A DNA stretch of 64,000 bases, taken from the sequence record PP047753. One strand, written 5' to 3'. This DNA is from Escherichia phage KEP3. The first letter of the stretch is position 1, and every line of letters begins with the position of its first letter. A program made the translations under genes and the position numbers. Positions 48,336-48,477 of this stretch are shown here, piece after piece. The notes under the pieces were generated by a model. That model saw only the letters and a list, made by a program, of their open reading frames with translations, had not been told where the DNA came from and ran no database searches.

Positions 48336-48477
48336 TTAAATTATCTTTGTAGATAAGCTACCCAGACTTGCTTAAGGTCTGTAGCGATGTGTCTTTTCGG
48401 GTTAAATCTAGAATCTACCCTTTCACCTTTGTGGTCGCATACTCACAGGTAAGCTTAATAGCTCACCTACAAAGATA
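48336..48477 (-). ncRNA. candidate structured ncRNA bounded by 12-bp inverted repeat
   Basis: TTATCTTTGTAG at 48336-48347 pairs with CTACAAAGATAA at 48466-48477; internal hairpins; no T-loop. Confidence 0.3.

Follow-up and report, generated by a model that had tools for sequence, protein, structure and literature searches.

A conserved pseudoknotted RNA directly upstream of tRNA-Lys(UUU) in Escherichia phage KEP3 and its possible relation to a phage Ro60-like protein

The analyzed DNA stretch of 64,000 nt (hereafter, the window) originates from the genome of Escherichia phage KEP3 (sequence record PP047753), a Felix-O1-type myovirus (Ounavirinae). Within its tRNA array, it contains an element of ~146 nt (E1, positions 48336..48481, minus strand) that a first-pass annotation, made from the sequence alone, had described as a 12-bp terminal inverted repeat enclosing hairpins. 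E1 is best explained as a functional non-coding RNA that folds independently, rather than as a gene, a mobile element, or a repeat of the DNA as such, and its RNA structure is, with high confidence, under selection. It folds into a four-way body resembling a cloverleaf, which is closed by a very long helix and contains a pseudoknot. Its most likely role would be that of a Y-RNA-like partner, scaffold, or regulator of a Ro60-like protein encoded upstream. E1 and the surrounding RNAs are described below on the minus strand, which is the strand of the tRNAs.

The array comprises 26 tRNA genes on the minus strand (43756-49525). The first sub-cluster has a single large gap without tRNAs, which extends from tRNA-Asp (48790-48867) to tRNA-Lys(UUU) (48259..48334, minus strand, found by tRNA detection), and E1 is located there; tRNA-Lys(UUU) is its invariant 3′ neighbor. 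On its 5′ side, E1 directly adjoins the 3′ end of a YrlA-like RNA; on its 3′ side, it is separated from the 5′ end of tRNA-Lys(UUU) by 1 nt. A 700-bp query around the element matched 259 phage records, mostly of Felixounavirus (97.9% identity for phage KhF3). Phages of the Felix O1 type are classical tools of phage typing and therapy; in their tRNA operon, ~450 nt from tRNA-Asp to tRNA-Lys carry no annotated RNA, and this gap is now shown to hold conserved structured RNAs.

The arms of the inverted repeat, TTATCTTTGTAG (48341-48352) and CTACAAAGATAA (48467-48478), are both present and perfectly complementary, as had been claimed; the coordinates assigned to them earlier (48336-48347 and 48466-48477) were displaced by 5 nt on the left and by 1 nt on the right. 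The repeat also turned out to be longer than 12 bp. At the DNA level, the arms are 22 nt long (48339-48360 and 48459-48480; 91% complementary) and form the third-longest local inverted repeat of the window; in minus-strand RNA, both DNA mismatches turn into G-U pairs, which results in a 24-bp helix. The minimum free energy (MFE) of E1 on the minus strand was from -46.6 to -49.2 kcal/mol, with z-scores from -5.8 to -6.8, the value of -49.2 kcal/mol belonging to the 146-nt RNA read from 48481 down to 48336. None of 200 shuffled sequences was equally stable, and the plus strand reached a z-score of only -2.8.

E1 contains no ORF of at least 40 aa. According to the analysis using ARAGORN and the Rfam tRNA model, it has no tRNA cloverleaf, T loop, D loop, or 7-nt anticodon loop. 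The absence of an ORF was thereby confirmed, and the absence of a T loop, asserted at the same time, holds for tRNA detectors; one hairpin of E1 has a T-loop-like UUCUAGA loop that is not kept beyond close relatives. With gathering thresholds, Rfam detected only tRNAs in the window. The Rfam scan proposed by the first-pass annotation, extended to E <= 10 over the region 48150-48900, detected only tRNAs and a partial tRNA match in the neighboring RNA, so that E1 matched no family, the Y RNA models included. No intrinsic terminator was predicted on the minus strand at E1, where the A+U-rich closing helix is followed by UUUAAU and then by the tRNA.

The closing helix, P1, is formed by a 5′ strand at 48457..48480, which contains the right arm of the repeat, and a 3′ strand at 48339..48362, which contains the left arm; both strands are supported by covariation, the 3′ strand also by the inverted-repeat search. 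The junction J1/2, UUAAGCUUA (48450..48458), follows the 5′ strand and pairs with the loop of the last hairpin as a pseudoknot (48450-48454 with 48370-48374). Next come hairpin P2 (48426..48449, identified by eye), which has a UGUG/CACA stem and the loop motif GAGUAUGCG (consensus RGUAKGC), and hairpin P3 (48399..48420), GGGUAGAUUCUAGAUUUAACCC, with the apical GAUUCUAGAUU and a basal pair that alternates between GC and AU. Hairpin P4 (48363..48381), CAGAC-CUUAAGCAA-GUCUG, abuts the 3′ strand of P1 and has a 9-nt loop with the consensus C-Y-U-N-N-R-Y-A-A. The CAGAC...GUCUG hairpin is thus one of the internal hairpins noticed earlier. Its bulged extension by CUAC.../...GUAG (CUACAGAC/GUCUGGGUAG), which had been put forward along with it, was rejected as a conserved structure: it can be drawn in KEP3 and in variants A and B of the element (see below), but is in competition with the top of the long helix and cannot form in two distant loci (L064 and L065), whereas the long P1 covaries.

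A BLAST search with E1 alone gave matches only in Felixounavirus, Mooglevirus, and Suspvirus. The 20 distinct versions found there represent two sequence variants, A (that of the window) and B, which differ strongly inside the element and share the closing helix P1, the P3 apical hairpin, and the 3′ hairpin P4 with its 9-nt loop. The apical GAUUCUAGAUU is invariant in these three genera; this hairpin differs in more distant lineages and is not kept in loci L065-L072. Distant homologues of E1 were reached not by BLAST of the element but via homologues of the neighboring protein, encoded by the fetched loci L064-L072 (51-63% identity). In every one of these loci, the 140-175 nt located directly 5′ of tRNA-Lys(UUU) fold alike (z-scores from -3.1 to -6.8), forming a P1 of 21-30 pairs that is unrelated in sequence to the P1 of the window. 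The hairpin with the 9-nt loop abuts the 3′ strand of P1 in all of them except L071, the most divergent one. E1 was found directly 5′ of tRNA-Lys(UUU) in every Felix-O1-like lineage examined. The covariance model R1, which was built on variants A and B, scored 165.7 bits with the E1 of the window on the minus strand vs. 41 bits on the plus strand, and matched the expected site in L064 (75.8 bits), L067 (73.7 bits), L068 (34.1 bits), and L070 (24.8 bits).

Covariation was assessed in a model-based alignment of 17 sequences from three deep lineages; the alignment was fitted to the model, which favors the structure, although the sequences can also be aligned by eye. With MAFFT, the P2 region of variants A and B was misaligned. 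Paired positions accounted for 99.1% of cells, 13 of the 34 pairs had changed on both sides, and none of 500 shuffles reached the observed values. In the control, where the partners were slid by 1-3 columns, pairing fell to 25-50%. Compensatory changes were found in 9 of the 23 pairs of P1 (99.2% of cells paired) and in two of the five pairs of P4, whose stem covaries between lineages around a kept loop. A similar pattern is seen in P2, where the stem varies (UGUG/CACA, GGGG/CCCC, CUAU/AUAG, CAU/AUG) and the loop motif is kept, as judged by eye and with no formal score. The covariation proposed earlier as a check was therefore observed: the terminal pairing is kept at 21-30 bp in all lineages examined, with compensatory changes.

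The pseudoknot was recognized from the complementarity of the P4 loop to the strand located right after the 5′ arm of P1, since both change together. The loop and its partner read UAAGC:GCUUA in variant A (the window), UUAGC:GCUAA in variant B, UAAGCAA:UUGCUUA in L064, AAGCAA:UUGCUU in L065, UAGUAA:UUACUA in L068, and UGAACAA:UUGUUCA in L070. The best partner of the P4 loop lies at positions 22-30 of the element in 11 of 13 sequences, the exceptions being L066 and L069, although single matches are not significant.

These data bear on two alternatives. The terminal inverted repeats and the homing endonuclease genes inside the array might suggest a feature of the DNA itself, namely, a miniature inverted-repeat transposable element (MITE), a cruciform or protein-binding palindrome, or a chance repeat. 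However, E1 occurs as one copy per genome at one fixed locus, and its arm sequence is found elsewhere in the window only once, as a match with 1 mismatch at 59239. Presence/absence polymorphism apart from larger deletions was not observed, and E1 lacks the hallmarks of a MITE. In addition, the compensatory changes run via G-U intermediates, and G-U pairs form only in the minus-strand (tRNA-strand) RNA; the internal hairpins and the pseudoknot covary as well. The probability of a DNA-level feature is considered negligible. The second alternative, a new self-cleaving ribozyme that cuts the tRNA precursor, would fit a compact pseudoknotted multi-helix fold with kept loop nucleotides inside a transcript that must be cut. 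It is nevertheless very improbable: no known ribozyme family in Rfam matches E1, the downstream cut is already set by RNase P, conserved nucleotides are few, and the long perfect P1 is untypical of small ribozymes.

As for the putative protein partner, an ORF of 471 aa (49691..51106, minus strand) precedes the array on the same strand; ~165 nt separate its end from the first tRNA, and 1.2 kb separate it from E1. Its product contains DUF2828 and DUF7788 and is a member of PHROG 850 ("RNA-binding protein"). No PDB entry was matched in sequence or profile searches. A single-sequence AlphaFold model was unusable (pLDDT 44), whereas the AF2 model based on an alignment of 52 homologues had a pLDDT of 89.4. 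According to the Foldseek analysis of the latter model, the top 12 PDB matches were all Ro60, Rsr, or Thermus phage Ro60 proteins and covered the full length (E-values from 5e-8 to 2e-5; query-normalized TM-scores 0.37-0.66). The modeling thus confidently predicts a Ro60 fold, with a ring of HEAT repeats and a vWA domain. Homologues are encoded in 709 phage records, among them those of Mycobacterium, Listeria, Vibrio, Staphylococcus, and Campylobacter phages. Previously, a Ro60 fold was reported in the PhageMaP preprint for gp130 of Felixounavirus Bas63, for which inhibition of the host defense system ppl was proposed; the same preprint speculates that some downstream "tRNA genes" might be Y RNAs (PMC11482910). 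Apart from that one speculative sentence, literature searches on DUF2828 and on Felixounavirus non-coding RNAs yielded no description of E1 or of the cassette RNAs considered below.

The RNA that adjoins E1 on its 5′ side, C4 (about 48478..48622, minus strand), is not annotated; it gives the partial Rfam tRNA match (22 bits) and is not detected by ARAGORN. It consists, in order, of a closing bulged helix, UUUACAGCAA, a V hairpin, a T arm, a loop-closed acceptor stem, and a D arm. The T arm is canonical (GAAGG-UUCGAUU-CCUUC), the acceptor-like stem ACUCGGC-AGAU-GUCGAGU is closed by a loop and covaries to ACACG/CGUGU in phage Sf13, and the D arm reads GUGU-AAUGGUA-GCAC. The order of these arms was recovered by RNAalifold from six lineages (for the acceptor-like stem, only in part), and 12 of the 29 pairs showed compensatory changes. 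A circularly permuted tRNA with its arms in the order V-T-AS-D is the defining feature of YrlA (PMC4201824), and, judged by its sequence, C4 is a YrlA-type tRNA mimic. E1 itself has none of these arms.

C4 is also one of four cassettes interspersed with the tRNAs of the KEP3 array, the others being C1 (49281-49353), C2 (49123-49186), and C3 (48627-48702), all on the minus strand. Each has a lower helix UUAC/GUAA, an internal loop with AGAA opposite UG, and an upper helix GACCG/CGGUC, followed by UUUACAGCAA and a variable insert. The TTGACA/TTTACA leader of the cassettes was considered as a promoter and rejected, since it is better read as the lower helix of the RNA, which covaries with the 3′ tail (UUAC/GUAA, UUGC/GCAA, GAC/GUC). 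ACAGCAA cassettes with covarying helices also adjoin more distant Ro60-like genes (29-51% identity to the one in the window). Outside the Felix-O1-like group, they were found in uncultured phages (L059 and L062), in Klebsiella phage FBKp34, and in Listeria phage CKA15 (L073); the cassette regions in these loci are L059 3526-3743, L062 3679-3897, L073 1821-2085, and L077 6520-6900. For CKA15, three non-coding regions of extremely high abundance in RNA-seq data have been reported from the 2 kb preceding the Rsr-like gene, and the authors suggested that they might be Y RNAs (PMC12282133). Taken together, the cassettes are probably Y-type partners of the Ro60-like (DUF2828) family, and UUACAGCAA may be their counterpart of the GNCGAA motif. 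In the CKA15 genome, a "tRNA splicing ligase" gene (L073, 5010-5855), presumably of the RtcB type, is located ~1.3 kb downstream of the Ro60-like gene; its position echoes the order of the Salmonella rsr-yrlBA-rtcBA operon.

A link between E1 and the cassettes is provided by a shorter paralogue of E1, E2 (46541..46631, minus strand; inverted repeat I1; z = -5.7), which is located directly 5′ of tRNA-Leu(UAG). It has a 27-bp closing helix that resembles P1 of E1 (AUUAGGUCUUUUUAGAGGGC in E2 vs. AAUUAUCUUUGUAGGUGAGC in E1), and both elements end with AAAGAU..UUUAAU before the tRNA. After the 5′ arm, E2 carries GUUAUUACAGCUUG, which is the cassette motif, and then only one hairpin, which has a 9-nt loop and adjoins the 3′ arm. 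In L064 and L067, R1 also matched the orthologues of E2 (25-29 bits). Cassettes have a closing helix, then U-U-A-C-A-G-C-A-A on the 5′ side, then a variable insert; at the position of this motif, E2 has UUACAGCUUG and E1 has UUAAGCUUA. Thus, the E1 junction stands where E2 has UUACAGCUU with its UUACAGC, a position equivalent to that of UUACAGCAA in the cassettes. In L065-L070, the slot before tRNA-Leu(UAG) is occupied by an ordinary cassette, and in L065, the 5′ part of E1 is itself similar to a cassette leader (score 33; none of 300 shuffles scored as high). With moderate confidence, E1 and E2 are regarded as long-stem derivatives of the cassette family; descent of E1 from RNAs composed of a closing helix, UUACAGCAA, and a variable insert would be in line with these partial similarities.

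The suggestion in the first-pass annotation that E1 resembles "Y-RNA-like or other protein-bound small RNAs" gains from this genomic setting. As in Y RNAs, the two ends of E1 are base-paired, forming a long stem around an internal module (24 bp in the window, 21-30 pairs in every lineage examined). The gene with the predicted Ro60 fold is located 1.2 kb upstream on the same strand, well within the ~4 kb expected for a Ro60 orthologue, a YrlA-type RNA is the direct neighbor, and cassettes occur beside Ro60-like genes. Other parts of the suggestion did not stand, and several observations weigh against this role. The 5′ strand of P1, UAAUUAUCUUUGUAGGUGAGCUAUU, contains neither of the Ro60-binding motifs, GNCGAAN0-1G of bacteria and GGUCCGA of the bulged helix in animals; a GCCGAAG string is present only in the P2 loop of some variant-B phages, e.g., Sf13. 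P1 has neither a conserved bulge nor a sequence kept between lineages, so the stem offers no obvious site for a sequence-specific protein. No Y RNA covariance model of Rfam matches E1 at the permissive threshold given above. Beside Ro60-like genes outside the Felix-O1-like group (L059-L063, CKA15, FBKp34), E1 was not found, and ordinary cassettes are present there; its presence follows tRNA-Lys(UUU) and not the Ro60-like gene. The similarity of the E1 5′ part to the cassettes is significant in only one or two of eight lineages. Finally, Salmonella phage FG1m (L074), a natural deletion variant, lacks tRNA-Tyr, tRNA-Asp, the whole spacer with E1 and the YrlA-like RNA, and tRNA-Lys(UUU), yet keeps the Ro60-like gene and is viable, which indicates that E1 is dispensable in the laboratory. 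On balance, action of E1 as a putative Y-RNA-like partner of the phage Ro60-like protein is the leading interpretation, to which we assign slightly less than an even chance.

The probable origin of the RNA matters for the most serious rival of this interpretation. Two strong sigma-70-type promoters are predicted on the minus strand just downstream of the Ro60-like ORF (-35 hexamers at 49672 and 49581), and the minus strand has no predicted terminator from there down to tRNA-Lys; E1 should therefore belong to the tRNA precursor, being transcribed as part of a polycistronic RNA from these promoters. Cleavage by RNase P at the 5′ end of tRNA-Lys(UUU) would generate the 3′ end of E1, and the perfect P1 duplex of more than 20 bp is likely to be an RNase III substrate. 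It is then conceivable that E1 is a purely cis-acting processing element, i.e., a structured 5′ leader of tRNA-Lys(UUU) in which P1 serves as an RNase III site that separates the upstream RNAs from the tRNA-Lys/Met/Ile sub-cluster and orders the RNase III and RNase P cuts, the excised piece having no function.

In agreement with this, the distance from E1 to the downstream tRNA-Lys(UUU) is 0-10 nt in all lineages examined, and P1 is held at 21-30 bp and free to drift in sequence, as expected if duplex length alone matters. P1 corresponds to about two helical turns, the minimum for RNase III, and contains the at least 20 bp of near-perfect double-stranded RNA typical of its substrates, the cleavage itself being predicted; in L064, it abuts position +1 of the tRNA. 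E2 likewise is located directly 5′ of tRNA-Leu(UAG), which is the first tRNA of a tight cluster, and E1 and tRNA-Lys are lost together in FG1m and are both absent from FBKp34. However, a processing stem requires neither the kept loops (RGUAKGC in P2, C-Y-U-N-N-R-Y-A-A in P4) nor a covarying pseudoknot, and most other tRNAs of the array, which are spaced by 2-10 nt, do without such an element. In Escherichia phage ESCO45 (L075), another natural deletion variant, E1 persists beside a truncated tRNA-Lys. A solely cis-acting role is thus a serious rival, although a rather unlikely one.

Another alternative connects the constant neighborhood with tRNA-Lys(UUU) to a function in trans: E1 could be a decoy or inhibitor of host defenses that cleave this tRNA, or a chaperone or regulator of the phage tRNA-Lys. 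PrrC, RloC, and PARIS-type nucleases are defenses that cleave tRNA-Lys(UUU). The co-occurrence of E1 and the tRNA across lineages is strict, and the P4 hairpin resembles the anticodon arm of the KEP3 tRNA-Lys, CAGA-CUUUUAA-UCUG. In addition, phage tRNAs are thought to counter tRNA-targeting defenses (cited in PMC11482910). Mimicry of the anticodon arm by P4 was nevertheless rejected, since the P4 stem does not covary with the anticodon stem of tRNA-Lys in other lineages, and the P4 loop is mostly taken up by the pseudoknot. A role tied to tRNA-Lys(UUU) is regarded as improbable.

With E1 as a partner of the Ro60-like protein still preferred, a broader proposal can be made tentatively: E1 and E2 might constitute a new class of structured phage RNAs, a pseudoknotted long-stem offshoot of an unrecognized family of Ro60-partner RNAs marked by UUACAGCAA. 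Such RNAs would act in trans during infection, either by tethering the Ro60-like protein to an effector or by protecting or regulating tRNA-Lys(UUU) against anticodon nucleases. This proposal is possible but doubtful at present.

Several other features of the array were noted. Between tRNA-Ile and tRNA-Met, there is an inserted ORF for an HNH homing endonuclease (185 aa; 47602-48159, minus strand), which overlaps the tRNA-Met end and is not present at the corresponding site in KhF3, Sf13, and other phages. The spacer between tRNA-Lys(UUU) and tRNA-Met (48181-48258, minus strand) contains a 77-nt structured insert (CCCUUAACUGAGAAAC...GUUUCUCUAACUAGGG), which is present in some Felixounaviruses and not in others, e.g., FO1a and ESh21. 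BLAST matches that overlap this insert were found in Escherichia phage 18-1-2 as well as in unrelated large phages of Klebsiella and Salmonella (44-101 nt, 76-89% identity), and Yersinia phage P778 gave a 36-nt match with 97% identity; the insert may be a further small RNA or a mobile spacer. The spacer just after tRNA-Asp (48703-48789, minus strand) has two conserved hairpins, GAGAGGGCU...AGCCCCUC and a stem of ~12 bp, CCUUAAAGAG.../...UUCUUUAAAGG. In addition, a 13-nt inverted repeat with 92% complementarity (46782-46794 and 46883-46895) brackets tRNA-Ser(UGA); it would lengthen the acceptor stem in the precursor and may serve as an additional stem for processing.

If E1 and the cassettes bind the Ro60-like protein, they would offer a tractable E. 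coli/Salmonella phage system for the function of Ro60/Y-RNA particles, a long-standing question in bacteria and animals, and a new RNA recognition motif for a phage Ro60 family as widespread as that described above. The E1 locus adjoins a gene for a Ro60-fold protein that one preprint ties to counter-defense (PMC11482910). E1 is a good candidate for an undescribed protein-bound small RNA; if it is only a processing element, it would still represent a conserved RNase III-type maturation signal for a phage tRNA.

Among known systems, the species 1 and 2 RNAs of phage T4 (rnaC and rnaD; 139 and 119 nt) are of similar size to E1 and are also encoded inside a phage tRNA cluster, being stable small RNAs processed from the tRNA precursor. 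To our knowledge, their function is still not established. Homology to E1 was rejected, since R1 has no match in the T4 tRNA cluster and the folds differ: rnaC, unlike E1, ends in a tRNA-like T arm. Unlike in KEP3, no Ro60-like gene is annotated in the T4 region retrieved. E1 can also be compared to the RNase III stems flanking rRNAs or found in phage early transcripts, where a conserved duplex of more than 20 bp likewise surrounds an RNA domain in a polycistronic precursor of stable RNAs. In contrast to the rRNA-type stems, the domain enclosed by P1 is only ~95 nt long, with its own kept loops and a pseudoknot, and cleavage is predicted.

Phage Ro60 homologues with small structured RNAs encoded adjacently are known from Thermus phage phiLo, which has the Y-RNA-like Yrl1 and Yrl2 (PMC12135203), and from CKA15, whose RNAs are highly abundant and located beside tRNA genes (PMC12282133); in this respect, both resemble KEP3. 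Unlike E1, the RNAs of these two phages have a short stem-bulge-stem structure, those of phiLo carry the CGAA motif, and the CKA15 locus contains ACAGCAA cassettes and nothing like E1.

In bacteria, a second Y RNA that forms a long hairpin (YrlB of Salmonella and M. smegmatis, Yrn2 of D. radiodurans) is encoded beside the tRNA-like YrlA (Chen et al. 2014, PMC4201824). Like these RNAs, E1 has 5′ and 3′ ends that pair into a long stem around a structured module, is encoded on the same strand as, and within ~1.2 kb of, a gene for a Ro60-fold protein, is close to a YrlA-type mimic, and would share a precursor with other small RNAs. It differs from them in having no GNCGAAN0-1G/GGUCCGA motif or conserved stem bulge and in its larger size (146 nt), with three hairpins and a pseudoknot; its putative partner differs from Rsr in being a divergent DUF2828-type Ro60 that is recognizable by fold only. 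E1 is not classed as a Y RNA of this type, since the motif is lacking, but, of the systems considered, it appears to be most similar to the long-hairpin Y RNA that accompanies YrlA.

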